From: a virus
DNA: 64,000 nucleotides
IMG/VR virus record: IMGVR_UViG_3300010397_000002
Span: 1 to 64,000 of that record
Reading direction: 5' to 3' (one strand)
The translations under genes and the position numbers were made by a program. The notes under the pieces were generated by a model. That model did not search any database. It was not told the DNA's origin and was given only the letters and a program-made list of their open reading frames with translations. Positions 11,771-60,241 of this stretch are shown here, one piece after another; the first letter of the stretch is position 1, and each line of letters starts with the position of its first letter.

Positions 11771-13231
11771 TTACGCAGCCGGTTGTAAACGCTGACCTAA
11801 GATAAACTTAGATGCAGCAACCACCCGGGTGCCTTTGCTTGAGCGAATATGGATACGTCTCACGTTCTGATCATCCGTAGGAGTATCAGCCATGGCTCCA
11901 GTAGTGAACATTTGATAATGTCCGCGTGAACCACCTCCGATAGATTTCTTCCACATGATAGTGAATGCATCTTTCATGATACCTGTTTTCGCATCTTTTG
12001 TTTTATCCATAGGAGCGATAATGAAGTACCAAGGATAGTTAAATCCAGGAAGTGCGGTAATATCAGGATGGTTCAGGATCATAAGTTCCTTCACATTGAA
12101 TGTGAATCCACCAATTTTTACTTGGTCAATATTCAAATCAACTGTAGACCGGTTGTACACCAAGCTACCATTAACTCCGAATTGAGAGATAATGTCCTTT
12201 GCTTTCAAAAGGAATTCATAACCGCATTGCAATAAACATTCACGGCCTTGGTTCAATTTCCGGCGAAGACGGATAATTTGTTCGAACAATGCCATCGTTG
12301 GATTGTTGTCATAGTACAGTTTAGGCGCATTCAACTCCAAGTTAGGCATGTAACCTTGAGTGGTAGAGATTGTAACAGCCAAGCCGTTTTTATCAAAACC
12401 AGGGATTGCAGTACCAAAAGGAGTGAGGAAAAGACCAGCTTGTTCCATGAATGCAAAGCGCATTTCAGTATCAGAGAATCCACGTGGATAAACGAAATTG
12501 ATTTCCTTTCCTTGATACACAAAAGGATAAGTTTCGTTGGTCGCTTCTATGTCGGTTTGATCATAGTAATCCGCAAAACGTTGGATGTAATTGGTGAACG
12601 TTTTGCTGGTTGGAGAGATACCTTTTTGCATTCCATAAGACGCCTCCTCGAAAGCAGAGCCTATTACTGCAAATTGATCACCACCATAAACACCAGCGGC
12701 ATTGGTAATTGTATTGGTAAGAGAAGGGAATGAAGACACAACCTTCACTAAATACAACCTATGAGCGCCTGCAATTGACTCTCTTTTACCGCTGATACGC
12801 CACACACCTTTATTTTTGAATTGGATCAATTGACCAGTTCTAGGGTATGAGTATTTAAGAGCAAGAGCTCCTGTTTGTGGACTATGGCTTATGGAGGCAA
12901 GTTGAACGTAGTCCAAACCTACATAAAGCGCATCATCTCCATTAACCAAGGATGCTGTCCCGAACACGTTGGCCTGGGTAGAATCAGTGTTGATGTAAGG
13001 AGCATCAAATCTCTTATTGGCTTCATGATGGATAATTTCTTCACCCTTCACTTCTTCCATAAGACCCATTTTGAACATTTCTCCGATATCTGTTTCCAGC
13101 GGATTGACGTCAAACATCGTTGGTCCAACTTGAGGTTTATGGATAAAACTCATTTGGGATATAAGCGGATTTTCTTCACGTGCTGCGACGGAGAAGTCCT
13201 GCCAGGTATTTACTTCTGTGAATAATGCCAT
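11771..13231 (-). CDS. Major capsid protein (crAss-like)
   Basis: 486 aa after the scaffold/portal genes; GSAFEEAS...FTNYIQRF motif; followed by a terminator. Confidence 0.8.
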   Translation of the reverse strand: MALFTEVNTWQDFSVAAREENPLISQMSFIHKPQVGPTMFDVNPLETDIGEMFKMGLMEEVKGEEIIHHEANKRFDAPYINTDSTQANVFGTASLVNGDDALYVGLDYVQLASISHSPQTGALALKYSYPRTGQLIQFKNKGVWRISGKRESIAGAHRLYLVKVVSSFPSLTNTITNAAGVYGGDQFAVIGSAFEEASYGMQKGISPTSKTFTNYIQRFADYYDQTDIEATNETYPFVYQGKEINFVYPRGFSDTEMRFAFMEQAGLFLTPFGTAIPGFDKNGLAVTISTTQGYMPNLELNAPKLYYDNNPTMALFEQIIRLRRKLNQGRECLLQCGYEFLLKAKDIISQFGVNGSLVYNRSTVDLNIDQVKIGGFTFNVKELMILNHPDITALPGFNYPWYFIIAPMDKTKDAKTGIMKDAFTIMWKKSIGGGSRGHYQMFTTGAMADTPTDDQNVRRIHIRSSKGTRVVAASKFILGQRLQPAA

Positions 13232-13299
13232 TGTTTTCGGTAGTTAAAGATTTTTATCCTCAACCTCCGATGTTGCACAATATTAAGTAACAAGAGATT

Positions 13300-14565
13300 T
13301 TATCTCCTTGCCGCTTCTCTCTCTGCCTTTTTCTTTGCCATCATTCTATCAGTTTGGGCATCTATGCTCTCATCCTGAATATCACCACTTGATTTTGGTT
13401 TTCTGTCCGGTTTCTTTTTTCCGATGTCCTCGGCTTTAAGTATGTGTGCGCGACTCCGTGCGGATTTAAGCGCCTCTTCTACCATTTCTGCACCGAACAG
13501 TGCGAATGCGGCTTGTTGAAATTTTTGTTCCGGATCAAATCCACCCACTAAATTACCTTTCTCATCATAAGACCTTGGGTTGCTTAAATAGCCTTCTGCG
13601 ACCACTTTAATTTTACCTAATTTGTCTTTGTTGAATTTGTAGATAAATGGATTCTTTGGATCATCATCCAGTTCAAATACTAAATTATCTAATCCGTCAA
13701 GGTGCTCGTTGAATGATTTTGTATTGCTTGCGATACTTGAAACCACTTCTTGAGGAACCTCTTCTGGTTTAGGTTTTTCTTCTTCACTTATAGTTTTAAA
13801 TTCTTGTTGTTTCTCTTCAATGAACTTCTTGGCCTTTGAAGCATCGATTTTAAGATCGCTCTCTAAATCTTCTTTCTTGTCCTTATATGCTTCTATAGAC
13901 TCGAAGTCTTCTTCTTTAACAATGTACTTACTCTCAAATCTCCGGTTGAATTTTCTCCTGGACTCATCGATGCTGAGTTCTGGATGCTGCATGATGAATT
14001 CCTGTTCAAGTATTAGTTTAGGATCTGTTTTATTAACATCTATGCTAATAAGTGAGGCCATCATTTGAAGACCATCCTGAAGTCTGGCTGGATCGTAGTC
14101 CTTTAATGCTTCATAAACTAATTTTTGTTGTTCACTTTTGAAGACTGGTTCTTTCGGAGCGGCCTTTTCTAATTCAGCAACTTTTTTAATGAGGACTGTA
14201 TTTTCATCCAAAAGTTCTGCAGCGCGGTCAATTACCTCAATGAACTCCTCTTCGTTTTTGATTCCGTATTTATCGGAAAAATTATCGGCAATGAAGTTAT
14301 CAATTTCGGCAGGCTGATCTTCTTCTTTCTCCTCTTCATTTTCTACTTCTTCTTCAGGCTTATCGTCATCCTTAGACTCTTTTTCTTCAGACTCTTCCTC
14401 TTTCTTATCGGCATCAACTTCTTCATTCTCTTCTTCGGTTTCCTGTTCTTCCTCCTCTGTTTCAACCTTGTCTTTCGGAGCCTCTTTTTCAATTTTTGTA
14501 TCTGCGGGTTTGTCCTCTACGGTAACCATTTTGTCTTCATCGAACGAATAAATTTCTCTTGCCAT
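13300..14565 (-). CDS. Acidic scaffolding-like protein
   Basis: Extremely E/D/K-rich 421 aa between portal and MCP. Confidence 0.65.
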   Translation of the reverse strand: MAREIYSFDEDKMVTVEDKPADTKIEKEAPKDKVETEEEEQETEEENEEVDADKKEEESEEKESKDDDKPEEEVENEEEKEEDQPAEIDNFIADNFSDKYGIKNEEEFIEVIDRAAELLDENTVLIKKVAELEKAAPKEPVFKSEQQKLVYEALKDYDPARLQDGLQMMASLISIDVNKTDPKLILEQEFIMQHPELSIDESRRKFNRRFESKYIVKEEDFESIEAYKDKKEDLESDLKIDASKAKKFIEEKQQEFKTISEEEKPKPEEVPQEVVSSIASNTKSFNEHLDGLDNLVFELDDDPKNPFIYKFNKDKLGKIKVVAEGYLSNPRSYDEKGNLVGGFDPEQKFQQAAFALFGAEMVEEALKSARSRAHILKAEDIGKKKPDRKPKSSGDIQDESIDAQTDRMMAKKKAEREAARR

Positions 14566-15007: not shown

Positions 15008-17449
15008 TTATTTTTCTTTCGATTTACTCATTGCTTTCTTCGCGTCATTATCGGCCTTTTTTGAATCGTTTTCAGCTTTCTTTGCGTCACCTTCTGCCCT
15101 CACCTGAGCCATGGCATACTTCGGTTTATTCTCAACAGCCTTCTTAATGATCTCATCAACACTGGTTTGTTTGGCAATTTGCTTTTTAACCTGATCAGAT
15201 TTGTCAGCAATAACTCCTTCGAGTTCTTTAGTTCTATTGAGTATATCCACGTCAATTTTAGCCTTCAATTTCATCATCTCTTCCTCGGCCATTGCTTTGG
15301 CTTGAATAACTGCAATTTCTCCATCTGTCTTATCAGAAGCAGCTTGACGATTTGCATCCATAGCAGCCTGTTGGTTGGCGACATTAGCTTGCCCTGCCTT
15401 CCGTTCATTGATCTTAATACGGATACCAAGTATCTGACGTGCCTTCTTGAGATTTTTTATCTCGCGGATAAAAGCTACATCCAAATGAGTAAGCGTTCCT
15501 TTATCCAGACCAATTGCTAAATCTTGGAAGAAAGCTGCCCATTCTTGTGCCGATGGAGCCCGCACTAAAAATAATCCATAATCGCATAAAGCGATACTAT
15601 CCGGGATGGTAAAGTGACGTCCCATGGCAGGAATGAATCCTTCAATACCAACCCCATCTCGTTTAGCCTGCTGAACGAGCAGTAATAGTTGATTGGTCGC
15701 TGCCCGATACATATAGGTGTAAGAATTGAAAAGATACTCCATATCTAGATCACCAGTAGCTTGCGATTGCTCCATAACACGAACAGCCAATCTATCTGGT
15801 GTTTCTGTAGATTCGGCCACAGTGGTTCCAGTCATTTGCTCAAGCATATTTATCCCAGTAGTGAACATATTCAGATAATCAGCCATCATTAATCCAGATG
15901 GATTGTTACCTACCGCGCTGCTGGAATATCGCTGGTCATACTTATTTATCGGAGATCTTTTTACCAAGGTACCAGTTTGAAGGAAATGCTTGTAAACCTC
16001 GCGCGGAGTCCAAGACTTTCCTCCCTTGCCAAAAGCTACAGCTTCCAGTTGGGTAAAATCAATTTCTCTGGCGCCCATGAATCCTTGAGCAAGGATTTGT
16101 TTCATTTTATTCCAAGCCACATTGATCATAAATAAAGGCTCGATCATCTGTGCAGCAAAGCTCACAGTCCTTCCTTCTTTATAATTTGGGGCAAAGGTTA
16201 TGATCGGTAATACGCTATTTACCAAATTTAACCGTGGATATTCTTTACGGCCGTAACCATAAACTACGTGGCTATCCAATACCCAAGTGCCACCGTACAC
16301 ACTGGTATATGAGTTTTTAATAATATCATACTCTTGATCATCAGCGAATTTTGGATCATCTTGTCTTGGCTTCCAGTTCAGACCGCGTTCCATTATTGTC
16401 TTATTGCCAGCTTTGTTCTTTCTGGTAATGAATACTCGATCATCTTGGCTTAAATAGTAAAATCGCATCACTGGGATATAATTCAATCCATCAAATTTCT
16501 GGTTAAATCGGTTGATGGCGTAAGTTGCCGGAATGCTATTTTGATTAGCGTATTGCTGTATTACTCTTTCGATTTCATCTTCGGTTAAATAAGCTGAAGA
16601 TTCTTTACGGAACTGATTAACGGTGGGGAAGTCAAGATATCCTGCATATTCCTGGTTTTGGAAGTTCTCATCCTCAACATAAGATCCAATGTAATACTTA
16701 GGGTTTATCCGGTCGCATCTTGGGATCCCGTTTTCATCACGGTAACAATGCATATGTCCACGACCAATAACAACTTTGTCATTGGCAACCATCCGCATTT
16801 TCTGATTGAAATCATTGATTTGATGGATCAGTGCAATAGACAATTCACCATCAATAGCCTTTTGCAGCTTAGGGTTGGTGAGCATCTCATACATTAATTC
16901 ATCTGGATATTCAGGTAAAACATCCACATCTAAGTCGGGAAAGAAATCCCGGGGATTCATTTTTATGTCAGTTATCCACTTCCTGAACTCGTAGTATGTC
17001 TGAATATTGGCCTCATATGTCTTTTTCTCATGAACGGAGACAGGATCAATAGCCTCCAATTGTACCTCATATTGCAGGTTCATCATCTTAGCCACCGCAC
17101 GATTTATGTACTTTGGCGCCAGATTTAATACCTGAATATCCAGATAAGCCAAGCTTGAGGAACCATCGTCTGCCGCATCATTGTGAACATCCTTAAAAAA
17201 ACCGAACATATTTCTAAGGTTGTCTACGCTCTGTCTTCCTTGAGAAACCTCGATCAATGCCTGGTATTCGCTATCGTTCCAAAACCGAGATCCTCCGAAA
17301 CGCCCGCTCGAATAGTACATAGCCTTCGCGTATTGGAGTCCATATTCCGGCAGTTCCTTTATATTCGGACTTACAAATTCGTTTGGAAATACCGATCCTT
17401 TGACAGCAAAGTCAGAATCTACTAATCGTGTTTCTTCTGCAGAATCCAT
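15008..17449 (-). CDS. Portal protein
   Basis: ~810 aa after the terminase; likely start MDSAEE at 17449; SLAYLDIQVLNLAPKYINR motif and C-terminal Q/A-rich coiled coil typical of crAss-like portals. Confidence 0.8.
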   Translation of the reverse strand: MDSAEETRLVDSDFAVKGSVFPNEFVSPNIKELPEYGLQYAKAMYYSSGRFGGSRFWNDSEYQALIEVSQGRQSVDNLRNMFGFFKDVHNDAADDGSSSLAYLDIQVLNLAPKYINRAVAKMMNLQYEVQLEAIDPVSVHEKKTYEANIQTYYEFRKWITDIKMNPRDFFPDLDVDVLPEYPDELMYEMLTNPKLQKAIDGELSIALIHQINDFNQKMRMVANDKVVIGRGHMHCYRDENGIPRCDRINPKYYIGSYVEDENFQNQEYAGYLDFPTVNQFRKESSAYLTEDEIERVIQQYANQNSIPATYAINRFNQKFDGLNYIPVMRFYYLSQDDRVFITRKNKAGNKTIMERGLNWKPRQDDPKFADDQEYDIIKNSYTSVYGGTWVLDSHVVYGYGRKEYPRLNLVNSVLPIITFAPNYKEGRTVSFAAQMIEPLFMINVAWNKMKQILAQGFMGAREIDFTQLEAVAFGKGGKSWTPREVYKHFLQTGTLVKRSPINKYDQRYSSSAVGNNPSGLMMADYLNMFTTGINMLEQMTGTTVAESTETPDRLAVRVMEQSQATGDLDMEYLFNSYTYMYRAATNQLLLLVQQAKRDGVGIEGFIPAMGRHFTIPDSIALCDYGLFLVRAPSAQEWAAFFQDLAIGLDKGTLTHLDVAFIREIKNLKKARQILGIRIKINERKAGQANVANQQAAMDANRQAASDKTDGEIAVIQAKAMAEEEMMKLKAKIDVDILNRTKELEGVIADKSDQVKKQIAKQTSVDEIIKKAVENKPKYAMAQVRAEGDAKKAENDSKKADNDAKKAMSKSKEK

Positions 17450-17450
17450 T

Positions 17451-17768
17451 TTAGAATAGACGTTTAAAAAGTTTATACGGTAAGGCCATTTTATTATTTC
17501 CGGAGTCAACAAAAAGGTAATCCCCTTTCCGTCCGATCTCAAAGTCATTATCCATTTGCCGATATTTTATAGACTTCGGAGAGGAGATGGCCGCTTCAAT
17601 ATTGAAGAAGGCCCGCTTCTCTAAAGCCAAATCACGCTTGATGGTCTTGAATGGTTCGGCTGATTTACAAAAATGCCAGTCATTAACATGGTCAGGATTT
17701 AATTCCGCAACGCTAACATCTTCCTCCAAAATCTGCTCCATTGTCTTTCGGTCGTTATCTTTTGCCAT
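17451..17768 (-). CDS. Hypothetical protein between terminase and portal
   Basis: 105-aa ORF filling the intergenic space. Confidence 0.6.
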   Translation of the reverse strand: MAKDNDRKTMEQILEEDVSVAELNPDHVNDWHFCKSAEPFKTIKRDLALEKRAFFNIEAAISSPKSIKYRQMDNDFEIGRKGDYLFVDSGNNKMALPYKLFKRLF

Positions 17769-17799
17769 AAAAGTTGTGTTAATTAATCAAATTTAGCGA

Positions 17800-19941
17800 T
17801 TACCTGTTAACATTCCCATATTCATCAAATCCTGGCATAATATCATAGATGTCCATGGGTGGTAAAGTATATGTTTTAGGCTGAATTTTACCTCCAAGTT
17901 CAGTGAACCCTGCCGCTACCGAATAGTCATATTCAGTGGTTTTCTTAGGATTGAATACCAATAAATCTTCCACCAAATCAATGAAAGGAATGGTATGCCC
18001 CCAATACTCAATATACGTTGCAAGGGCACTTGTATACTCCTGAATGATCTGCCCGCTGGCCGGGGTACCGTCTGCGTACACATTTTTCCTTGTTCCTGAC
18101 TCAGCTATGTATTTCTGCAAAATAAAATCTCCGCACCCATGTTCAATGAAATAATTCATGATCCCTGGCTTTTGAGACTCAGCATGCAGTGAGCACCCGA
18201 AATACCACATCATCATCAGTGCCCGTTCAAAAAACACATTTGGATCATTCGGGCGAACGTCCATCATCGCGATGTATCGATTGGTCTTATACTGATACTT
18301 CTCTTTGGCGCGTTGCTCCAAAATATCCTGCGTCAATATCCCATCAATTGATGAATCGTATTTACGTTTTACGAAAAGGACTGGCTTTGACCGGCGAGTG
18401 CTGATATATTCTTCATCTCCTCCTTTACCTTCCACGACAACTCCGTGATCTACCGGATCGACTCCTGAAATAAATTTAGCATCATTGAGCGGAGCAAAGT
18501 TGGGTCTATCTCCTCCTAATTTTCTTTGTACTAGATTTGTTTCTTTTGCATCATTAATGAGTGAGTGTACCCATGCCCATCCGGTGTATTGATTTGGTCT
18601 GAACCTGACTTCTGTAAATCTCTTATTGTCTACCCAATAAAATTCTCCTTTAACAAGTATTGACTCTGCGATAGATTCAAGTTCTGATTTACGGTCTTGG
18701 AGGACAGTGGCGTTGAATTCGCAGCGGTCTGTGTTGATGTAAAAAATTTCTTTTAAGTATAATGGATACCTTCTTATAACACCAGACAATTCTTTTGGGC
18801 TATCCTTATAAGATTCTCTTTCAAGTAATATCCATTCTTTAGCTTCCTTCCTTAATGGATGACCCCATTGATCTAAAAAACTTTCGTGAGCGCAATCACC
18901 TGGAAGGAAACAAACATATAGTCCACTCTTCGTTCTTCCATCTGGTTGACGTTGATCGAAGTCACTTTCATAAAACATTTTTTTGTATGCTCTACCACCC
19001 TTACCAGTAGAATCCATAAATTCAACGGTGGTCCCTATGAAGCATTTTCCTCGTAACTCTTTACCTCTTCTTAAACAAGGCTTTACAACGGCCCATCTAT
19101 CGTTTACATTACAATTTAAAATTTTACCGGCCTCCTCCATTAAATAAGTGTGAAGGATGCTACCATCATACTCACTTACTCCACTTGATCTATAATCAAG
19201 TTTTGATTCTAAATCTATTGAGTCATCATAATCACCAATGACCATTGACTTACTCCTAGCTGCTGGCTGTTCAAATTTTATATCCGATGTTAAGGCTGAT
19301 GTTGTGTCGTACGTTGGTGTAAAATAATATGGAAGCTTCTTGAATGGAGACTTGATCATTTGAGTGTAAAACAATCCTGCTTTATGATCATTTTCTCCTT
19401 GGCAGCCTGTATAATGATTTCTATTTCGTGTCGTTCTGTATATTGCCCATCCTCCCATTAATGATGACTTACCATAACGACGAACAGTGTTGAATAATAA
19501 TCCATAAGAGTTTGGATCTTCTTCACAATACTTTAATAAATATGTAAGTTCTTTATCTGTCTCTCGATATGTTGGGAATCCGAATGTTGTTTGCCATGCT
19601 GTTAAGTACCAATAGTAAAACCCAGTGATGTAAGTTGGTGTGCCGTTATTCCAAAACCAAAATCCTTCTTCAGATCGATCCCACTCTTGATCTGCCCATC
19701 TATTTATTTCTGATTGAAGTGGGTGAATATAATTAGGATCAAGCTGAACTCTTTTCGCGTATTCCCTAATTGCTTTTTTAATTGTTTCGGTTGGGGATGG
19801 GCGGGTCCATTTTTGTTCATTGAAGAAATGTATTTTTTTATCAGATGGGACTTGTGGCAAATAAACACACGGAATGCCTTGTCCGGTTATCGCGGTGATT
19901 AAATATTTTAGTTGATATGGATTTTTAGTCTCCTGAAACAT
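17800..19941 (-). CDS. terL: Terminase large subunit
   Basis: Walker A-like RRYGKS, Walker B-like LMEEAGK, GTT coupling motif, RNase H-like SGVDPVD, C-terminal YDYSVAAG. Confidence 0.85.
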   Translation of the reverse strand: MFQETKNPYQLKYLITAITGQGIPCVYLPQVPSDKKIHFFNEQKWTRPSPTETIKKAIREYAKRVQLDPNYIHPLQSEINRWADQEWDRSEEGFWFWNNGTPTYITGFYYWYLTAWQTTFGFPTYRETDKELTYLLKYCEEDPNSYGLLFNTVRRYGKSSLMGGWAIYRTTRNRNHYTGCQGENDHKAGLFYTQMIKSPFKKLPYYFTPTYDTTSALTSDIKFEQPAARSKSMVIGDYDDSIDLESKLDYRSSGVSEYDGSILHTYLMEEAGKILNCNVNDRWAVVKPCLRRGKELRGKCFIGTTVEFMDSTGKGGRAYKKMFYESDFDQRQPDGRTKSGLYVCFLPGDCAHESFLDQWGHPLRKEAKEWILLERESYKDSPKELSGVIRRYPLYLKEIFYINTDRCEFNATVLQDRKSELESIAESILVKGEFYWVDNKRFTEVRFRPNQYTGWAWVHSLINDAKETNLVQRKLGGDRPNFAPLNDAKFISGVDPVDHGVVVEGKGGDEEYISTRRSKPVLFVKRKYDSSIDGILTQDILEQRAKEKYQYKTNRYIAMMDVRPNDPNVFFERALMMMWYFGCSLHAESQKPGIMNYFIEHGCGDFILQKYIAESGTRKNVYADGTPASGQIIQEYTSALATYIEYWGHTIPFIDLVEDLLVFNPKKTTEYDYSVAAGFTELGGKIQPKTYTLPPMDIYDIMPGFDEYGNVNR

Positions 19942-23061: not shown

Positions 23062-23081
23062 ATAGTAATATATATCACTAT
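23062..23081. promoter_or_regulatory. Operator-like palindrome, copy 1
   Basis: ATAGTAATATATATCACTAT (19/20 to the perfect palindrome ATAGTGATATATATCACTAT). Confidence 0.65.
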
Positions 23082-35245: not shown

Positions 35246-36894
35246 ATGAATGAAACAGAAATAAAAATGCTTGAACTTTTATTAGGCAAGCTTCAAATGG
35301 ATCTAAAGCATAACATTTGCATTACAACAGGATTTGTACAAGATGGGTTTCATATAGGTGTTTACCATGATAAAACAGGAGAAGTTATTATAAAAGAATG
35401 CGGTCACGATTTAATGACAGCTATAAATAACTGTAAGTTAAAGCTATGAATAAAATCATATACCACACAAAGCCGGGAACGACAGGGTTCTTTTTGATGA
35501 ACGTGCCTGAAGAACCTGTTTATTTACCACTTAATTGTGCATGTAATGCTTGTAGAACAGATTATAGTAGGAAATTTCAGAAGTACACCGCAGACCTACA
35601 ATCCTGCAAAGAAGAAGCCATTAAGAATGGAGAAATAACAAACCCTGAAATAATTTATATCATTGAGTTACGAAATGATCATCCAATATCTACTTACTGG
35701 AAATACAAAGACACTTTAAATATAATCCGTGATGGTGATACATTTGACTTACCAAAGGGATTGAAGGTTGAGGAAGTAAAGCTTTACAGTGATTGTCAGG
35801 ACATTCCTATTATATGGTCAGAAGTTGATGACGATGATTGTATTCAGTCAAAAACAGTTATTTGTCTAGTACCTTCCGATAAGGAAGAGAAAGAACCGGT
35901 TGAAAGTCAAGATGAGTTATTTGATTCGCTTGGTAAGATACTGCACCATGATATTACTTCAAATGGGTGGGAGTATGATAAGCATACAGCTATGAGTTTA
36001 TTCACCATAACCCGTAAAGAGAAATGAGAAAGTTAAAAACACCTGAGGAGATAATCCTAGCAGCTTCCACTCAACGTGGATATGATACACCGGAAGATGC
36101 TTACAAAGCTTTGATCATAACCGCTCAACGTGATGCTTTAGAGTGTGCTGCTGAAAGTGCCAAAATAACATCCAAATTAGATGATTCAGAATATCATCGT
36201 GGTTACATAACGGTAGTGGATAAGTCTAGTATTTTGAACCTAATGCCTAAAGAGAAATGAGCATCGAAGAAATAAAGGATCAGGTTGCTAAAGAATTATT
36301 GTTTAGAAACGCTCAACATCTATACGATTCGGGGAGCGATCATGAAATAAATAATTTATTAGAGCAAACATGCAAACGTTACGCAACCGAGTGCTGTAAG
36401 GCATCGCTTGAAAAGGCAAGTATATACGCACATTTTAATGTAACGTGTGAAGGTAAATCTCACGTACTTCAAAGTCAACTTGCAACGAAAGACAACTTTA
36501 CTTACAAGTTAGATAAATCCTCAATAACAGACGAATCAAACATTACACTTTTATGACCGATCAGGACAAAGAACCCAAAAGTGAGGACAAAGAACGAATA
36601 GAGAAGGCTGAAATTTTAGAAGTTTCAACAGGAGCAAATCCTATATTTTTGTATAACTCAGAACTAAATTCACTATTCAATATCTGTGAGTTTAAGCCAT
36701 ATATGATGCATTTGGAGAAAGAAATAATTCAACCGATTATAAGAGAATCATACGATAAAGGTAAAATAGAAGGATTCAATGAGGGGATAGAGGCTTTAGA
36801 AAAAAGTTTAATTGCCCGTGGCTTCAATAAAGAAGATTACAATGGAGTTATAATATTTGAAGAAATTGAAAAACTAAAAACCCATTCTAAGTAA
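35246..36894 (+). CDS. Run of five small coupled hypothetical genes (35246-35449, 35446-36027, 36024-36260, 36257-36556, 36553-36894)
   Basis: Consecutive ATGA-overlapping ORFs. Confidence 0.6.
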
Positions 36895-42463: not shown

Positions 42464-42501
42464 TAGTGTCCTGATAGTGTCCTGACCAAGCTTAGGACAC
42501 T
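42464..42501. repeat. AGTGTCCT repeat cluster, left
   Basis: TAGTGTCCTGA x2 + CCAAGCT + TAGGACACT. Confidence 0.8.
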
Positions 42502-42957
42502 TTAATTGTTTATTTCTGGCTTGTTCTTGCGGTATTTTGCTTTAATCTGATTATACAGATCAAGCCTCTCCTGCTTTTCTTCATCAGTAAGTCTTCTTCG
42601 GGTTCCCTTACTTATGGTCTGATAAAGTTTGATCATAAGTTTAGCTAATTCTTTATCCCTCTCAAGTTCATCTATAACCAGTTCAAGAAGCATTATTGCG
42701 CGCCGGTCCTGAGTATCATGCCAATAATAAAGTTTACCATCTTTCTCTTGAACTGACCTTGCTCCACCAAACATTTCGTACATAAAATCAACTTCCTCTT
42801 CATCCTCCGTCCTAATACGAACGAAAAACTTATACCCAACATATTCCCCAACAAACTTCTGTGAAGAGCCTATAAAAGCATAAGTTTCGACAATATCAGC
42901 AGCTTTTGAAATAGTAAAATCATCTACATCATTGAAAATAATTTTGATTTTTTTCAT
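42502..42957 (-). CDS. Degenerate single-domain LAGLIDADG-like protein
   Basis: Probable start MKKIKII at 42957; V-R-I-R-TED...MFGG...YYW...A..LL..V pattern of phage LAGLIDADG proteins, but the motif helix reads KAADIVETYAFI. Confidence 0.55.
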   Translation of the reverse strand: MKKIKIIFNDVDDFTISKAADIVETYAFIGSSQKFVGEYVGYKFFVRIRTEDEEEVDFMYEMFGGARSVQEKDGKLYYWHDTQDRRAIMLLELVIDELERDKELAKLMIKLYQTISKGTRRRLTDEEKQERLDLYNQIKAKYRKNKPEINN

Positions 42958-43081
42958 AAAAACAAAAAACCCATGCAGTCTAGTAAGTACCTGCACGGGC
43001 TTTAAAGATGGATATGGAGACCCGATCTTGATACCCCGCTTACTAGTTCGAAATAGCAAAATCATTACCGCATCAAAGGTA
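42958..43081 (-). promoter_or_regulatory. Promoter plus structured attenuator-like leader
   Basis: TACCTTTG -7 box; hairpin GCCCGTGCAG/CTGCATGGGT followed by a U-tract just before the ATG. Confidence 0.55.
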
Positions 43082-43123
43082 AAAAGATTATTAGATTTAC
43101 CAAATTTAAACACTCATTTATGG

Positions 43124-43310
43124 TAGTATCCTGAGTGTCCTGATAGTGTCCTGAAGTGTCCTAGGACACTCAAAATACAAGGTCTCTCTCTAGTGTCCTG
43201 CTTGTCCTAGTAGGTATAGGAATACCCTAGGACAGCAGGACACTAGGAGTATGCGGGTAGTAGGACGCTTAAAAAAAATAATATATTTTACTATTTGGTC
43301 AGGACACTAG
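43124..43310. repeat. AGTGTCCT/AGGACACT repeat and palindrome field (candidate origin or recombination site)
   Basis: About ten exact or degenerate copies, including the perfect palindrome AGTGTCCTAGGACACT (43155-43170) and an inverted repeat (43190-43210 with 43227-43246). Confidence 0.8.
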
Positions 43311-44432: not shown

Positions 44433-44537
44433 TTTTGCTATTTTGTTCTTAAATAGTTAGTAAACACCATTCCATTCTCAAAAACTTTCTAACTCATTAT
44501 CAGCAACTTACATCTTTTTTCTTTAACAGCTATTGAC

Positions 44538-44557
44538 ATAGTAATATATATCACTAT
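44538..44557. promoter_or_regulatory. Operator-like palindrome, copy 4, overlapping the early promoter
   Basis: ATAGTAATATATATCACTAT between TTGACA and a TATGTTTA -7-like box. Confidence 0.65.
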
Positions 44558-44593
44558 GTTTACATAACAATTCGAAACAAAACGACTAAAGTT

Positions 44594-44815
44594 ATGCGAA
44601 CCTTAGATAAAATAATTACAAAAGTGAGCACTAAATATGGCGCTCCAATGGGTCGGGTAAATGTTGGTTCATTTCCTGATGATGTAAAAGTATTTGATTC
44701 AGCGGTGCCAATGCGTGGAACTTATGACAAAGGCGGCGCTTATTGGGGTTTAGGTACTCAGTTAAGAGTATCGTACACTAAAGACCTTTCATACATCAAT
44801 TTTTACAGGAAATGA
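44594..44815 (+). CDS. Small early protein
   Basis: KYGAPMGR...YDKGGAYWGLG motif. Confidence 0.7.
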   Translation: MRTLDKIITKVSTKYGAPMGRVNVGSFPDDVKVFDSAVPMRGTYDKGGAYWGLGTQLRVSYTKDLSYINFYRK

Positions 44816-44925
44816 AAAAAGCCACCCTTTTAATAATCGGCATATTGACTGTAATAGTTGCGGTTGCTTTATGCCCAAGGCCAATTGCGATGCGATCTTT
44901 AAATGTATTTAAAACGACTAAATAA
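44812..44925 (+). CDS. 37-aa membrane peptide (not in ORF track)
   Basis: MKKATLLIIGILTVIVAVALCPRPIAMRSLNVFKTTK*. Confidence 0.45.
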   Translation: MKKATLLIIGILTVIVAVALCPRPIAMRSLNVFKTTK

Positions 44926-44933
44926 TAACGACT

Positions 44934-45269
44934 ATGAAAACATTAACAAAAGACATGGTAAACTTTTCAATCAATTGTTTATCAGAATACGAGCCAATTA
45001 CTAAGTCTCTTTCATTTGAGACAACCGGTGCAGATCACTCTGAATACATACAAAAAGTACAACTTGACAACGGCGAAAACCCTTGGTTATGGTGTGCGGT
45101 TGAAGTGATTGCAGAGTTCAAAGGTATTCGTGGCGCGGCTTATTTAGGTGGCTGTGCATATGAAGATGAGCAAGGGTTTAAAGTTGGCGGCTATTATGAG
45201 CAAATGATTGATGAGGCTTTCGAGGAATTGAAGTCTAAAGTAGACGAAATAGTTAACGCCTTAAATTAA
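44934..45269 (+). CDS. Small acidic early protein
   Basis: NPWLWCAVEV...YLGGCAY...GGYYEQMIDEA. Confidence 0.65.
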   Translation: MKTLTKDMVNFSINCLSEYEPITKSLSFETTGADHSEYIQKVQLDNGENPWLWCAVEVIAEFKGIRGAAYLGGCAYEDEQGFKVGGYYEQMIDEAFEELKSKVDEIVNALN

Positions 45270-45275
45270 AAATTT

Positions 45276-45404
45276 ATGATAACCTTTAAACAAATGCCAT
45301 TATGCCCGAAATGTGGGTGTGCTATGGTAGGAGGTGCGCCTCATGGGCCTTGGCCTGTGCAGTATGAATGCCATTCATGCGGTCATATACTGATACCTAA
45401 ATAA
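45276..45404 (+). CDS. 42-aa Zn-ribbon peptide (not in ORF track)
   Basis: CPKCG...ECHSCG. Confidence 0.5.
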   Translation: MITFKQMPLCPKCGCAMVGGAPHGPWPVQYECHSCGHILIPK

Positions 45405-45542
45405 TCAAGATCATGAAACCCACCGAACAAATCTTATTCTTAACCAAAGACGCTGACATAATTTACGTGCCCTTCATTGGAGCGATTAAAAGCGTACTTG
45501 TTTTTGAGTATGTGAGTGTTAACAATTAAACGACTAAATATT

Positions 45543-45776
45543 ATGGAGATAACAACGGTAATTTTTTATAAAGAAGATGATGGGAGCATATTAGCGGTAT
45601 TCCCATACGAGCACAAAAGGATTCATGAAGTTGAATGTTATTCTTTTATCGGTCAGCATTCCAGTGCGGGTACTGAGTATTGCAACAAACTAAAGAAGGC
45701 AACTAAAAAAGAGTATGCTTCACTTAAAACAGAACTTGAAAGTAAGCCATATAATTACAAATTGAATGTTATTTAA
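45543..45776 (+). CDS. Small early protein
   Basis: Start at ATG 45543; LAVFPY...CYSFIGQHS...EYASLKTELE. Confidence 0.65.
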   Translation: MEITTVIFYKEDDGSILAVFPYEHKRIHEVECYSFIGQHSSAGTEYCNKLKKATKKEYASLKTELESKPYNYKLNVI

Positions 45777-45930
45777 AACATCTTAAAAGATCATGGAACT
45801 AAAAAAAGAAATAACTAGGCTTGCGAAACTAAAAGGCTATCCGCACATAAAATTGTCAGCGTTACAATATCTCGACATTCTTACTCAGGCGCATAAAAAT
45901 ATTTATAAAACCTCTTAAACGACTACTAAA

Positions 45931-46506
45931 ATGAAAACGACTATTAAAAAATCAATCACAATCAAGCAAGCTTTGAAAACTGCAAATGACGGCAAGAATC
46001 AAAGTATCAAACAAAAGTTTGTAGGTCAACATGTTTATTGCAATGTGGGTTCTCTCTGTGAATATGTTGTTAATAAGGGCTTTGAAGATCCAAACGCGCC
46101 TTTTACGTTGGATGATATTGAGAACTATTATTCTTATCCTGAATACAACGGAATTTCCGCAAGCTTTGACGGTGGCAGTGAAGATCAAAGAAATGAAGAA
46201 ATTGAACGTCTACGCGATTTAATTACAGATAATGATCATAAAAAAGAAATGTGTGATACAATTGAATCTGAAATTGAAGAACTTAAAAATCTCGAATCCG
46301 AACCGCAAGAAATATTTGAATGGTGGGCGGTATCTGAGTACTTATATGATAAGCTAAAAGATATGGGTCATTGTGTTGTAGACGCTGGAAGCTGTTACGT
46401 TTGGGGTAGATGCACAACCGGTCAAGCTATTTTACTAGATCATTGTATTAGTCAGATATGTGCTGACATGGGAATATTAGAGGGACAAGCTAACAGTTGG
46501 GCATAA
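45931..46506 (+). CDS. Early hypothetical protein
   Basis: EIFEWWAVS...VWGRCTTGQAI motif. Confidence 0.7.
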   Translation: MKTTIKKSITIKQALKTANDGKNQSIKQKFVGQHVYCNVGSLCEYVVNKGFEDPNAPFTLDDIENYYSYPEYNGISASFDGGSEDQRNEEIERLRDLITDNDHKKEMCDTIESEIEELKNLESEPQEIFEWWAVSEYLYDKLKDMGHCVVDAGSCYVWGRCTTGQAILLDHCISQICADMGILEGQANSWA

Positions 46507-46922
46507 TGAAACATCTATTTGTCCCCTACGAAATTGCAAGGCAATTAAAGGAAAAAGGATTTAATGAACCGTGTTTTTTAGTCTACCATGATAAAAAACT
46601 GGTTGCTATAAAAGATCATGTTTCGTCTAACTTTTTAATTCCAATAACAACAAATAAAGAGTTAGGTGTAAAAACATTTTGTGCCCCACTATACCAACAA
46701 GTAATAAATTGGTTTAGGGATACACACAAAATATACATGAGTATTTTCCCCGACTATAATTCTAAAGATGATTATAAAACATGTTGGGGGTTTAATATTG
46801 TCCAACTTGAATGGGGCGAAGATAAAGAACACCATCTAGCCAGTTATGACCGAGAATATGAGACCTTATACAACGAAGCACTAACCAAAGCAATCGAAGC
46901 AGCACTAAAACTCATCGCTTAA
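46506..46922 (+). CDS. Hypothetical phage protein
   Basis: MKHLFVPYEIARQLKEKGFNEPC...APLYQQVINWFR. Confidence 0.65.
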   Translation: MKHLFVPYEIARQLKEKGFNEPCFLVYHDKKLVAIKDHVSSNFLIPITTNKELGVKTFCAPLYQQVINWFRDTHKIYMSIFPDYNSKDDYKTCWGFNIVQLEWGEDKEHHLASYDREYETLYNEALTKAIEAALKLIA

Positions 46923-46936
46923 TTAACCTAAGCACT

Positions 46937-46975
46937 CCAGACCGGTTTTACTTAGTCGTTTGCCGGTCTGGTTTT
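46937..46975 (+). terminator. Terminator-like hairpin with a 17-nt loop antisense to the early leader box
   Basis: CCAGACCGG-TTTTACTTAGTCGTTTG-CCGGTCTGG-TTTT. Confidence 0.7.
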
Positions 46976-47010
46976 ATCTCAAATGACTTTATGCAAACTA
47001 AATTTGGATC

Positions 47011-48426
47011 ATGATACTGCATTACATAAATAACAAATTAATTGGAATTGCTAATGAAAATTTATTCTCGGTTAATCTTTTTGATTATCAGTTATTACAG
47101 CAAGACATCATACAAGAAATAGATAACTCTCGGTGGGTTGATAATCATATCTTAATTATAGATAACAAAAAACGATATGAGTTTACGCATAGAGAAGAAA
47201 AAATTTATCTAGGCGATGAACTTATAAGTAATGATTTTAGAGATTTATTTATATCTCTGATTAATCCTGAAATGTGTAGACTGAAAAACAGATTTAAAAC
47301 ATTTACGGATTAACCATCTTCAAAACCTTTCGGTGTATAGGCCAACCGTTGATTTAACTGCAAACTAAATTTAAAACAATGAAACCAACAACTAAAATCC
47401 TCAAAGTATTCACCACCTATTGGACTAAGCAAAGGTATGCACTAGTTCGTATCAATGGAGTTGGTGTATTTATTAAGCTAAACTTTTTAACTGCAAACTA
47501 ATTATGAAAACAATAGACTTACATAAAAATTACATCCTCATTCATAAATTTCGTTATCCAGATGAGCCCATGAAGCAATGGGTTGTAGAAGATGAAACAT
47601 CAATCGGGCAGTATCACAATGATTGGAATGAGTTGATGGAAGTAGTTGATAAGATTGAATCATTAGGTTATGATTCTGGTATTTGTGGCGTAGTAATTAA
47701 AAACGAAAAACTGACAGAGATACTATTTGCCCCACAAGTCAAAAGTAATACCATAGAGGTTCATACCAGGACAAGAAAATCAAAAATAATGGCTACGTAT
47801 GAAGCTGTTGTTATGTGGATAGAATTACATGGAGAAGAAATCCTTAGAGCAAACTAATTATGAAAACTGAACAACAAGTTTTATTCGAAGCAAAAGCAAT
47901 TTTATTTGGCCTATTAGTTAATAAGTCTGATAGTGAATTAACACTTGTTGAAGCTGAGATTTTAGAGGCTATTTCCAGGGATCACCAAATCCAAGAGAAA
48001 CTTAATCTCCCCAAAGATCAAGCTGAAATTGATCGAAGACTGAAAGAGCGAAACACAATCACAAAGCACAATAGCGAATTTCCTTTACCGCCTTACGAAT
48101 CGTATGAAAAAGAATAGACTCCCGCGCAAACTAAAAAAGAAAATTAAAAATCGTCCAAACTTTTTAATTAAGAAGCTGGCGAAAGAAAACGGGCATCTCA
48201 TTTAATCGACTCAAGAAAAATTATAAAGAACGGAAAGATGACCAACACCGAAAAAATAGACACCTTCTTCCATAAGCTTACAGAGGATGAGAAACATGAG
48301 TTAGTATGTCGAAGTGCAAACAGCCAATGGAATTGGCAAACTAATACTGTGATTTTGGGTTGGAGCTCTATGAAGCATTTAGAAAAATACCAAGAAATGT
48401 TAATCACTAAATATTACAACAAATGA
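47011..48426 (+). CDS. Small early genes (47011-47313, 47379-47501, 47504-47857, 47860-48117, 48238-48426)
   Basis: Consecutive ORFs, most preceded by GCAAACTAA. Confidence 0.6.
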
Positions 48427-49133
48427 AAGATGCAATTGGCGACCGAATGAAAAACTACTATGAAGATAGAACAAGATTCTCTCTCATTCGCAGATCATAC
48501 ACGATCATACGCATAGATGGCAAAGCATTTCACACCTACACAAAAGGACTGCAAAGACCTTTCGACGATCAGTTAATAAATGATATGGATCAAACCGCAT
48601 GCTTTCTTTGTAAAAACATTCAAGGTGCTAAGTTTGCATTTGTTCAGTCAGATGAGATTTCAATATTATTAACTGACTTTGAGGAATTAACTACTGATGC
48701 TTGGTTTGATGGTAACATTCAAAAAATGGTTAGTGTATCGGCCAGCTTGGCAACTGCAAGGTTTAATGAATTGCGACCTAGCAAACTAGCTTTTTTTGAT
48801 TCACGCGTATTTCAAATTCCAAGTAAAATTGAGGTAGAAAATTATTTCATTTGGCGCCAACAAGATACTGTTAGAAATAGCATTCAATCTACTGCTCAGT
48901 CAGTGTATTCACACAAAGAACTCGAAAATAAAACCACGGATCAGCAACAAGAGATGATCTTTCAGAAGGGTATAAACTGGAATGATTACGAACCAAAATA
49001 TAAAAGAGGGCGAATTATTCTTAAAGAAAATTATTTGAAAGAATATGCTATTAGAAGTCGTTGGATAAGTTCGGAGGCCCCCACATTCACCAAAGACAGG
49101 GAATTTTTATCAACTAAAATTCCTATCTTATGA
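48423..49133 (+). CDS. thg1: Thg1-like (tRNAHis guanylyltransferase family) 3'-5' nucleotidyltransferase
   Basis: IGDRMKNYYE, IRIDGKAFHTYT, QSDEISI, FDSRVF, WRQQD..RNS, GINWND. Confidence 0.9.
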   Translation: MKDAIGDRMKNYYEDRTRFSLIRRSYTIIRIDGKAFHTYTKGLQRPFDDQLINDMDQTACFLCKNIQGAKFAFVQSDEISILLTDFEELTTDAWFDGNIQKMVSVSASLATARFNELRPSKLAFFDSRVFQIPSKIEVENYFIWRQQDTVRNSIQSTAQSVYSHKELENKTTDQQQEMIFQKGINWNDYEPKYKRGRIILKENYLKEYAIRSRWISSEAPTFTKDREFLSTKIPIL

Positions 49134-49717
49134 TCCGAGGCTACGCCCGCGTTTCCACCCAACACCAAGACCTTGGCCGACAGATCCAAGACCTCAATCA
49201 ATACGGTTGTGAGATCATCTACCAAGAGAAGATTTCAGGCAAACTAAATAAGAGACCTGAGCTTGATAGGATGCTTGAAGAGATGCAAGCGGGTGACGTG
49301 ATTGTCATCCATAAGCTGGACCGACTAGGGCGCTCCCTTCAGCATTTGATTGAGCTTGTGAACACGTTCAAGGACCGAGGCGTTGACTTTATATCGCTCA
49401 AAGATAACTTCAACACCACCACCCCACAGGGCAAACTAATTTTCAATATCATGGGCTCCATCGCAGAGTTTGAGAGAGAGCTAATATTAGAGCGAGTGAA
49501 CAGTGGCATAAAGCACACTAAAATCCATGGCACTAAAACAGGACGGGCACATGGTAGGCCAGACAAAAGCAAGGACCCGAAAACTATTGAGGATGTTGTT
49601 AATTTATATCAATCTGATACAGCGATAACGGTTAAAGAAATTTCGGAAAAGATGAAGATTAGCAGACCAACTGTTTATAAAATTTTGAGGCAAAACACCG
49701 AATTAGTCATTCGTTAA
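49130..49717 (+). CDS. Small serine recombinase (resolvase/invertase)
   Basis: GYARVST..Q, KLDRLGRS, AEFERELI.ER..G, GRP, C-terminal HTH ISRPTVYK. Confidence 0.92.
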   Translation: MIRGYARVSTQHQDLGRQIQDLNQYGCEIIYQEKISGKLNKRPELDRMLEEMQAGDVIVIHKLDRLGRSLQHLIELVNTFKDRGVDFISLKDNFNTTTPQGKLIFNIMGSIAEFERELILERVNSGIKHTKIHGTKTGRAHGRPDKSKDPKTIEDVVNLYQSDTAITVKEISEKMKISRPTVYKILRQNTELVIR

Positions 49718-49777: not shown

Positions 49778-49802
49778 ATAGTGATATATATTACTATATT
49801 TG
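49778..49802 (+). promoter_or_regulatory. Operator-like palindrome, copy 5, overlapping a TATATTTG -7 box
   Basis: ATAGTGATATATATTACTAT; 25-nt identity (reverse complement) to 23062-23086. Confidence 0.7.
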
Positions 49803-49923: not shown

Positions 49924-49929
49924 AAATAC

Positions 49930-49995
49930 AAACTAAGCCCGGGCGCGAGAGTTTTTGAAGAGGGTCTTTTTCTCTCGTTGCCCGCTTAGTTTTTT
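49930..49995 (+). terminator. Long hairpin/terminator
   Basis: AAACTAAGC..GGGC.GCGAGAG pairs with CTCTCGT.GCCC.GCTTAGTTT, followed by a T-run. Confidence 0.6.
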
Positions 49996-50016
49996 ATCAA
50001 CTAAAATCTAATAATT

Positions 50017-59810: not shown

Positions 59811-60241
59811 TTCACTTCCCCAAAACAGTCCGCAAATCTCATGATCAAATACTTTACCTCATCAATAGTGAAGTCAGTACCGGCGTAGCTGCCGTAAGCA
59901 ATCTTCTGTCCTATATGCAAAGGCAATGCCTTTTCTTTACCTGGGCCGAAAGCAACTACAGTTCCAATCTTTGGCTTCTCTTTATTAATCAGTTCTTCAG
60001 GCTTGTACAAGCCACCCTTTGTCATGGTCTCAACAGGATCAGGATAAACAAGAATGCGATCCTCGTAGGGAGCGAACTTCTCCGTCATGAAGTCTACAGC
60101 GTTTTTCTTTTCTGTACTTTCCTGATGCCTTTTTGATAAGAACTCAGTTTTGTCCTGCATTTCTTTCTGCGACATCTGCTTCACCGCTTCTCTTTCTTCG
60201 TCAGTGAGTTTTGTGCCGGGCATTAAATACGTTTTTTGCAT
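59807..60241 (-). CDS. GroES-like co-chaperonin with N-terminal extension
   Basis: PYEDRILV...TKGGLY...GTVVAFGPG...GTDFTID...YLIMR. Confidence 0.8.
   Translation of the reverse strand: MQKTYLMPGTKLTDEEREAVKQMSQKEMQDKTEFLSKRHQESTEKKNAVDFMTEKFAPYEDRILVYPDPVETMTKGGLYKPEELINKEKPKIGTVVAFGPGKEKALPLHIGQKIAYGSYAGTDFTIDEVKYLIMRFADCFGEVK

Follow-up and report, generated by a model that had tools for sequence, protein, structure and literature searches.

Introduction

Start-associated sequences (SAS) are known from Cluster K mycobacteriophages (Pope et al. 2011, PMC3203893) and from Cluster EF Microbacterium phages (Jacobs-Sera et al. 2020, PMC7302621). In the Cluster K report, SAS are described as 13-nt elements with an AGGAG Shine-Dalgarno core that occupy the ribosome binding site; a subset, termed ESAS, carries an upstream 17-bp inverted-repeat extension, a reverse copy is reported for K1 phages only, and SAS are contrasted with stoperators (PMC3203893). 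The function of SAS was termed ill-defined in papers from 2024-2025. Since 2011, catalogues of these elements have grown to cover hundreds of actinobacteriophages, with no function assigned.

Several other systems bear comparison. In phages P1 and P7, the gene for the c4 antisense RNA lies upstream of the target sites, RNase P excises the RNA from its transcript, and covariation between the two phages proved the pairing. The 3′ UTR-derived small RNAs CpxQ and SroC share the terminator of their mRNA, carry a single-stranded seed before that terminator, and use Hfq. L5 stoperators are double-stranded DNA sites for a repressor that occur genome-wide and are not tied to start codons. The PeSLs of T4-type phages, said to have been described by Arbiol et al. 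in 2010, reportedly combine an early promoter with a stem-loop and serve as mobile regulatory cassettes.

Here we describe box A of a soil phage (IMGVR_UViG_3300010397_000002), whose genome has at least two start-associated boxes, each specific to its own gene block. The window analyzed is a 64,000-nt stretch, positions 1-64,000 of the record; the whole genome measures 77.3 kb. Two genus-level relatives, G003 and G004, were used for comparison.

Results

Across the whole window, AAACGACTA is matched exactly at 44580, 44912, 45528, 45917, and 45935 on the plus strand and at 46953-46961 on the minus strand. The original prediction had placed the box beside four start codons, with a partial copy at 44927 and an extra copy at 45935, and these positions were confirmed. 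The six matches compare with 0.34 expected by chance per 64 kb, and six or more were reached in none of 100 shuffles, so that the count against a shuffled background bears the motif out as well. The five plus-strand copies all fall within 44580-45943, beside four ATGs, and the single reverse complement lies in the 17-nt loop of a hairpin at 46937-46971; no further copies occur in the remainder of the 77.3-kb genome. All copies are confined to 2.4 kb. The 8-mer AACGACTA also picks up the partial copy at 44927, together with one unrelated reverse copy at 34921. Box A is thus a genuine motif, oriented with the genes and adjoining start codons.

The gap between box and ATG is 4-5 nt at three of the four starts. 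Copy 1 (AAACGACTAA, 44580-44589, plus strand) lies 4 nt before ATG 44594 of a 73-aa gene; copy 3 (45528-45537, plus strand) lies 5 nt before ATG 45543 of a 77-aa gene, and the stop codon of the upstream ORF overlaps this box (TAAACGACTAA); copy 4 (AAACGACTAC, 45917, plus strand) lies 4 nt before ATG 45931. At ATG 44934 of a 111-aa gene, the full box (copy 2, 44912-44921, plus strand) ends 12 nt upstream and also encodes the C-terminal KTTK of a 37-aa membrane ORF, and the partial copy AACGACT (44927-44933, plus strand) directly abuts the ATG. Copy 5 (45935-45944, plus strand) forms codons 2-4 of a 191-aa gene, within the coding start MKTT.

The block that holds these copies consists of nine tightly packed small ORFs of no known function (44594-46922, plus strand). 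Extending the box to all upstream early genes, as had been suggested, proved too broad, with the box standing at the start of only four of the nine. The ORFs are not paralogous, so the boxes are not remnants of gene duplication. Apart from a weak match for the 37-aa ORF, they are without homologues in the two relatives, and no close relatives of the block were found by DNA or by block proteins in the phage collection, IMG/VR, or the JGI metagenomes. The 138-aa protein of the block has a 58%-identical homologue. Upstream of the block, a consensus scan identified a promoter-like site, TTGACA-16-TATGTT (44533-44560, plus strand), which would serve the block; its TAtgTTTa resembles the Bacteroidota −7 box. 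A 20-nt near-palindrome (44538-44557) overlaps this site, recurs at 23062, and has an exact inverted copy at 49778-49797. Judged from the host-type promoter at 44533-44560 and the small accessory genes, the block would belong to the early class.

Shine-Dalgarno-like words occur in 6% of leaders versus 11% of background, and the leaders are A-rich, which agrees with the predicted host type that does not use Shine-Dalgarno pairing. ACTAA is 8-fold enriched before starts in all three genomes. With the conserved 3′ domain of 16S rRNA, box A is complementary over one 6-mer only (ACGACU to AGUCGU), within chance. Scans of the window for tRNAs and Rfam families returned no matches.

Beginning 14 nt after the stop codon at 46922, the terminator-like hairpin (46937-46971, plus strand) is the sole predicted terminator of the box-A operon. 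Its stem, CCAGACCGG/CCGGTCTGG, has 9 bp, seven of them G-C, plus a closing U-G; the loop spans 17 nt (46946-46962), the tail is TTTTATCTC, and the whole folds at −19.1 kcal/mol (z = −4.0). Inside the loop lies the anti-box TTAGTCGTTT (46952-46961, plus strand), the exact complement of box A, which is unpaired in both the minimum-energy and the centroid predicted folds. The 9-bp stem, 17-nt loop, T-run, and perfect box complement on the transcribed strand were therefore as originally predicted. In line with an intrinsic terminator, the hairpin closes a gene block with a G+C-rich stem and a U-tract (TTTT). Intrinsic terminators usually have loops of 3-8 nt, whereas this loop has 17, and a consensus terminator scan with a 3-8 nt loop limit missed the hairpin. 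Among the genome's strong-stem T-tailed hairpins that resemble true terminators, this loop is the largest, the others having 5-10 nt. The U-tract is short, however, and the gap to the next gene is too small for a promoter, so that transcription may continue past the hairpin into a longer RNA. When all T-tailed hairpins were scanned for TTAGT in the loop, a second case appeared in G003 (16888), a word too short to count. A 23-codon antisense ORF after the reverse box lies 36 nt from it, unlike every other copy, and was not taken as a gene.

Box A and the anti-box are complementary at 10 of 10 nt, and at copy 2 complementarity extends to 16 of 19 nt. As with c4, an unpaired loop is exactly complementary to sites that overlap translation start regions. 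Among 131 start regions ordered by predicted energy of pairing to the loop, the four with box A take ranks 1-4; the duplex is weak, at −12.4 kcal/mol versus −10.7 for the best unrelated start region. The odds against chance vary with how the question is framed. For exactly this 10-mer to fall in the loop, the naive chance is 1.7e-5; for a loop of such composition to contain the complement of any 10-mer that recurs at three or more start regions, it is 0.002-0.004 per loop; and under a broad definition, with about a dozen T-tailed hairpins, it is approximately 0.02-0.05 genome-wide.

Directly after the hairpin, a second motif takes over, box B (GCAAACTAA, n = 8). Four copies (46993, 47360, 47493, and 47849, plus strand) lie 2-10 nt before ATGs 47011, 47379, 47504, and 47860, and one (48126-48134, plus strand) is intergenic. 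Three further box-B words lie inside ORFs (48336, 49239, and 49431-49439, plus strand); the last encodes the conserved resolvase peptide GKLIFNIM and is probably a coding coincidence. At two copies the TAA of the box is the stop codon of the upstream gene, whose protein ends in ...AN-stop. Boxes A and B share the core ACTAA. Box B with its following bases was also considered as a Bacteroidota −7 box (TAnnTTTG), which fits at 46999 and at one G004 copy and fails where the box abuts the ATG, and which was therefore rejected as an account of the box in general. Box C (TTTTTATCAACTAAAAT, 49104-49120, plus strand) stands before the resolvase ATG 49130; the 17-mer is identical at 49991-50007 before ATG 50017, and a gene-sense copy occurs on the minus strand at 27364. 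The box-B block ends in a long hairpin (49928-49991, plus strand) with an outer stem formed by a box-B-like word, ACAAACTAAGC, and GCTTAGTTT; its inner loop, TTTTTGAAGAGGGTCTTTTT, is kept in G003 on a different stem. An antisense loop for box B was found in none of the three genomes.

Box B recurs in both relatives as a clustered gene-sense repeat, with seven copies in G003 and six in G004, before non-homologous genes; relatives included, the end of the box lies 2-17 nt from the ATG. This recurrence of box B at genes without common ancestry means that the boxes are selected signals rather than sequences inherited with one gene. Neither box A nor the hairpin was found in G003 or G004. Since box B is kept without a loop partner, and the relatives do without box A and the hairpin, the boxes need no antisense RNA.

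The box copies all lie at 44.6-49.4 kb among small accessory genes, with the portal, terminase, and tail genes at 4-20 kb, so that the boxes, in common with SAS, are restricted to non-structural genes. The island at 44.6-49.1 kb is almost without protein homologues in the relatives, in which the flanking genes are conserved, and Pfam and PHROGs named only a Thg1-like enzyme and a resolvase within it. A 24-nt stretch around box B is common to the source phage and G003.

Outside the source genome, box A was found only in short metagenomic fragments. Positions 44565-44596 are identical in a metagenomic variant with differing flanks. In one variant, another box-A gene stands straight after the 138-aa gene, at the place of the hairpin, which counts against a pairing of loop and box. 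Exact hairpin patterns gave no matches in IMG/VR or the JGI metagenomes, and a generic box-plus-ATG pattern gave single, chance-like matches in IMG/VR; on one contig (L100), two leaders resembling the box are separated by 328 nt, with nothing further. A search for RNA sequencing runs containing the phage found none.

The reverse SAS copy of the K1 mycobacteriophages offers a second case. This single copy lies in the 10-nt apical loop (CCUCCUAUCC) of a hairpin on the transcribed strand. The hairpin region is present in 128 phage records, the loop is kept in 10 of the 12 sampled, and the stem has two compensatory pairs; SirPhilip and Ekdilam have altered loops. In TM4 and Pixie, which also bear SAS, the final 9 kb contained no reverse copy that we could find. 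By analogy, the K1 reverse-SAS hairpin is an independent parallel to box A and its anti-box.

Discussion

We propose that box A is a start-associated leader element and that the anti-box loop pairs as RNA with the box-A start regions, a reading that we regard as possible rather than probable. Block-specific boxes (A, AAACGACTAA; B, GCAAACTAA) would mark where translation begins on the small accessory genes of a hypervariable island, with box A read on the mRNA in a host without Shine-Dalgarno pairing. Within its operon, the partner of box A would be the open 17-nt loop of that operon's own terminator hairpin. After completion of the transcript, the loop would be free to pair with a box that lies 5-14 nt ahead of the AUG or directly behind it. 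It could do so while still attached to that mRNA at its 3′ end, or as a 3′ fragment that persists longer than the mRNA itself. If initiation relies on an unstructured leader, pairing would hide the start region, and the four genes would be turned down together. Such a switch presupposes an RNA that is made and stable, a pairing that takes place, and an effect that is repression rather than protection. Since box B works with no antisense partner, the antisense layer would be an add-on to the box system and not its core.

With the K1 parallel, a wider claim can be framed, albeit one that is somewhat unlikely to hold: in phages of unrelated hosts (Bacteroidota-type and mycobacteria), a start-associated box on non-structural gene sets, together with a hairpin bearing an anti-box loop, may constitute a compact riboregulator of the one-to-many kind, in which a single element switches translation of all tagged genes.

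The boxes may instead be mRNA leader elements recognized by a protein or by the ribosome, each block having its own address for a phage or host translational activator, repressor, or site-specific endoribonuclease (cf. RegA and RegB of T4), with the loop copy functionless. This alternative is somewhat doubtful. It accounts for boxes that follow gene orientation at 2-17 nt from ATGs, for a box B kept in three genomes before unrelated genes with no antisense partner, and for a switch from A to B that falls at the block boundary; the literature reads actinobacteriophage SAS likewise. However, Pfam and PHROGs gave no RNA-binding protein or nuclease in the island, only the Thg1-like enzyme and the resolvase, and this model explains neither the K1 parallel nor why the loop of the operon's own terminator contains the exact complement.

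A role in gene exchange, which we consider unlikely, would make the boxes junctions at which phages trade gene cassettes (cf. PeSLs), kept as recombination there spares stop and start codons, with the loop copy as a scar. The near absence of protein homologues from 44.6-49.1 kb between conserved flanks is what such exchange would leave, and short islands of identity do sit at boxes amid unlike sequence (44565-44596 in the variant; 24 nt with G003). Copies are doubled or partial at 44912/44927 and 45917/45935, and the box stands before the ATG in some cases and after it in others. Box B supplies the stop codon, so that unrelated proteins end in the same ...AN-stop. Yet 9-10 nt is short for homologous exchange, a 237-nt gene difference in the variant has no box at its 3′ end, and the strict start-codon placement is equally expected of a signal. 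The junction model is compatible with the regulatory models and is not their competitor.

That the boxes are real and the loop complement a chance match in a T-rich loop is distinctly unlikely. A T-rich loop facing A-rich leaders raises the odds of such a match to 0.002-0.004 per loop and to a few percent over all hairpins, and the instance is single, without conservation. Nevertheless, the match is to the same operon's one non-trivial motif, with a specific chance of 1.7e-5, and the same layout appears in the K1 mycobacteriophages.

Least probable of the four, and in our view very unlikely, is a box that acts as an orientation-dependent DNA site for a sequence-specific transcription protein in the manner of the L5 stoperators, the reverse copy marking where the controlled unit stops. 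Like stoperators, the boxes are asymmetric motifs that point in the direction of transcription and occupy short gaps between genes; a palindromic operator is found at the operon promoter, and HTH proteins are encoded nearby. Against this, the register to ATG and stop codons is tight, the copies are local rather than genome-wide, no repressor is linked to the box, and a double-stranded site needs no place in the spacer of a strong inverted repeat. A phage-type promoter, which ACGACT and CACTAAA recall from T7 and T3, was rejected, as no single-subunit RNA polymerase appears among the large proteins by Pfam and PHROGs and 2-5 nt to the ATG leaves no space for a transcript start.

A pairing of loop and box would bear on the SAS themselves. 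The anti-box loops here and in K1 give a concrete hypothesis that mutants of culturable phages, Adephagia and Anaya among them, can put to the test. Should it be true, a riboregulator would explain the purpose of SAS, a question open since 2011, and would provide a very small programmable switch for gene sets. Should it be false, the boxes are still useful as markers of the joints within a hypervariable gene island, an aid to reading phage mosaicism.

Among the known systems, PeSLs resemble the boxes in being regulatory repeats found between genes, in hyperplastic regions of small unrelated genes, where they are possible recombination joints; PeSLs are much longer and include a promoter, whereas the boxes have 9-10 nt and no promoter. 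The L5 stoperators are likewise short asymmetric sites in intergenic gaps, oriented with transcription, but the box A copies are not spread over the genome, all lying within 2.4 kb and beside start codons. With CpxQ and SroC, the candidate shares a regulator that would be the 3′ end of a coding transcript, intrinsic terminator included; it differs in that the seed would be the terminator loop itself, as in kissing-loop antisense RNAs. The comparison with c4 is one of a single small RNA from the same operon, with loops directed against repeated sites that overlap the ribosome binding site, and hence of one-to-several control; unlike c4, the present candidate, known from sequence alone, would act through the loop of a 3′-terminal terminator.

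The closest resemblance in layout is to SAS. SAS have a Shine-Dalgarno core, whereas the boxes lack GGAG or AGGA and belong to a host type that does not use Shine-Dalgarno pairing; with the SAS layout present in such a host and without that content, the boxes are not simply strong ribosome binding sites. A genome carries one kind of SAS, in contrast to the several block-specific boxes here, and alignment of the box flanks by eye, for all copies, revealed nothing conserved upstream of the box that would correspond to the ESAS extension. Both are short asymmetric repeats (five copies and one partial of box A, eight of box B) a few nucleotides before ATGs, in one orientation and at non-structural genes only; and both sometimes overlap an upstream stop codon. 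Conservation across relatives before unrelated genes, as in SAS, is seen here for box B in G003 and G004 and not for box A in those two genomes. With the SAS of K1, box A further shares a single reverse copy, placed in a hairpin loop.

Results and Discussion

The sequence AAACGACTA (box A) occurs on the + strand at 44580, 44912, 45528, 45917 and 45935, and its reverse complement lies at 46953-46961, within the loop of the hairpin at 46937-46971. By chance, 0.34 matches would be expected in the window; no shuffle reached the six seen, and the whole 77.3-kb genome holds no further copy. The ATGs at 44594, 45543 and 45931 each follow the end of a box-A copy by 4-5 nt; the ATG at 44934 is preceded by a full copy and then by a partial copy that abuts it. 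The copy at 45935 forms codons 2-4 of a 191-aa gene. The four proteins encoded behind these copies show no kinship to each other. In the hairpin, a stem of 9 bp encloses a 17-nt loop and is followed by TTTT; the predicted fold is -19.1 kcal/mol (z = -4). Ten of the 17 loop nucleotides are taken up by the complement of box A (the anti-box). As a sequence observation, the original prediction of a start-codon box and its antisense loop was borne out in every detail.

The prediction also assumed a host that does not use Shine-Dalgarno pairing. The window, which covers the first 64 kb of one 77.3-kb virus record, encodes a portal, large terminase, tail proteins and a DnaB-type helicase. A single soil metagenome contains it in full and is its probable source, whereas it was found in no RNA run. 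Because start codons are not preceded by an excess of Shine-Dalgarno-like words (6% of leaders versus 11% background), leaders are A-rich (43% A, with A the commonest base at position -3), and one block protein has a homologue named from a Bacteroidota genome, the assumption is reasonable as a premise about the type of host rather than its identity.

Directly after the hairpin, box A gives way to box B (GCAAACTAA), with eight + strand copies between 46993 and 49431: four lie 2-10 nt upstream of ATGs, one is intergenic, and three fall within ORFs, one of these encoding the conserved resolvase peptide GKLIFNIM. The 17-nt box C precedes both the resolvase gene (ATG 49130) and the next gene, with a gene-sense copy on the other strand. 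The core ACTAA is common to all of them, with an enrichment of ~8-fold within the 20 nt upstream of starts. The boxes are genuine signals under selection; they sit near starts and run with the genes, an orientation that points to mRNA or transcription-coupled events.

What might read box A? The only tangible candidate partner is the antisense loop. Of 131 start regions, the four with box A take ranks 1-4 for predicted pairing with the 17-nt loop (-12.4 to -11.4 kcal/mol), compared with -10.7 kcal/mol for the best unrelated start region and a median of -5.2, making a loop-to-linear contact plausible but weak. Should pairing take place, its most likely effect in a Shine-Dalgarno-independent host would be repression through masking of an otherwise open leader; alternatively, it could protect the mRNA. 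We regard this antisense pairing as a tentative possibility because the case comes from sequence rather than from RNA or covariation, box B is independent of any anti-box, and the duplex is weak. Like every functional statement made here, it is inferred.

The behavior of box B bears on a second reading, in which a protein or the ribosome reads the leader and the loop is incidental; we consider this slightly less likely. Two complete IMG/VR genomes, G003 and G004, found through their large terminase (83% protein identity), are all the full relatives present in collections. They conserve the flanking genes (among them a 170-aa gene, the resolvase and downstream genes), with almost no protein homologue of the island at 44.6-49.1 kb. 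Box B is nevertheless a clustered gene-sense repeat in both (seven copies in G003, six in G004), mostly 2-17 nt upstream of the ATGs of unrelated genes. Several copies provide the preceding gene's stop codon, yielding proteins that end in ...AN*. Neither box A nor the hairpin occurs in either relative, and none of the three genomes carries the full box-B complement, TTAGTTTGC, in a hairpin loop.

That the boxes are a recombination joint is unlikely, and would be compatible with a signal role. Amid unlike sequence, the window matches G003 exactly over 24 nt around one box-B copy, and three further soil and rhizosphere runs contain contigs with pieces of the block. One contig matches 44565-44596 (leader, box A and ATGCG) exactly; its preceding sequence is unlike, it lacks the 73-aa gene, and the box-A leader leads directly into the small membrane ORF. 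On another, TAATC-ATG-AAAACGACTAAA takes the place of the hairpin after the end of the 138-aa gene, giving a further gene in which box A comes immediately downstream of the ATG. Box A thus travels at gene joints as a short, conserved island, and the 138-aa gene is not always accompanied by the hairpin.

A chance match between loop and box is quite improbable. The specific 10-mer has a probability of 2.2e-6 per position, which amounts to 0.17 expected copies on the genome + strand and to 1.7e-5 across the eight positions available in the loop. Under a broader definition, the complement of some 10-mer repeated at at least three start regions arose in 0.2-0.4% of trials with loops of the same composition or random genomic 17-mers; with about a dozen T-tailed hairpins in the genome, this becomes a few percent genome-wide. 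The loop, however, complements its own operon's single non-trivial motif. Least likely of all is a DNA site of the stoperator kind.

Several other features accompany the island. A seven-codon uORF (46990-47013; ATG CAA ACT AAA TTT GGA TCA TGA) starts shortly upstream of the first box-B copy and runs across it; the uORF stop overlaps the ATG of a 100-aa gene (ATGA), a hint of translational coupling immediately downstream of the terminator. The box-B block includes a Thg1-like 3'-5' nucleotidyltransferase gene (48423-49133; Pfam Thg1, 7e-27) that a DNA search did not find in G003 or G004; the window contains no tRNA gene. A small serine recombinase of the resolvase/invertase type (49130-49717) ends the 5.2-kb island, which is flanked by exact 20-nt inverted copies of a near-palindrome (44538-44557 and 49778-49797; also at 23062). 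This word is absent from G003 and G004 and could represent an operator regulon or delimit an invertible or mobile segment. A long hairpin at 49928-49991, followed by a T-run, has an outer stem made of a box-B-like word and its complement; its inner loop, TTTTT(G/C)A(A/G)AGGGTCTTT, is conserved on the G003 minus strand (about 32140-32095), whereas the stems differ.

Upstream of the island, short palindromic repeat fields occupy the same relative place in all three related phages (window 42464-43301, AGTGTCCT/AGGACACT; G004 17318-18576, CCGGGATAGTCCGGGAGAGT; G003 35969-36184, ACTGTACT/AGTACAGT), conserved in position and not in sequence. G004 (L228) also has a long 15-bp tandem repeat array (GCCCGAATT...) at 13200-13540, within a 329-aa gene after a box-B copy. 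In an unrelated virus (L100, IMG/VR contig 3300020388_000038), CCAAAACGACTAACAYTATG, the box-A core, precedes two genes (1885 and 2213, 328 nt apart) at the ATG distance of box A; with two copies only in 33 kb, this may be chance.

The closest known system is the start-associated sequence (SAS) of Cluster K mycobacteriophages, 13-nt asymmetric motifs located 3-7 nt before ATGs, in a single orientation, in the non-structural arm only, and conserved before different gene families (Pope et al. 2011, PMC3203893). A SAS-like motif also occurs in Microbacterium Cluster EF phages (PMC7302621), and the role of SAS was still termed ill-defined in 2024 and 2025 literature. In Anaya, Adephagia, CrimD and Angelica, we found that a reverse SAS copy forms the loop (CCUCCUAUCC, 10 nt) at the tip of a long hairpin, which lies on the transcribed strand in an intergenic gap near the right end. 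The reverse copy is a single one in Anaya (L236:39835-39925, Anaya record 59834-59924) and likewise in L237, L238, L239 and L242-L249. This region occurs in 128 phage records; among 12 sampled phages, 10 keep the loop (SirPhilip and Ekdilam have it altered), and two pairs of the consensus stem carry compensatory changes. Neither hairpin nor antisense SAS copy is mentioned in the recent SAS papers examined. The last 9 kb of the SAS-bearing TM4 and Pixie yielded no reverse copy. The parallel shares a limit with the case here: some lineages have the boxes and lack the anti-box. The Cluster K1 phages, an unrelated group, share the layout of an anti-box within a hairpin loop, and this parallel raises the odds of antisense pairing here.
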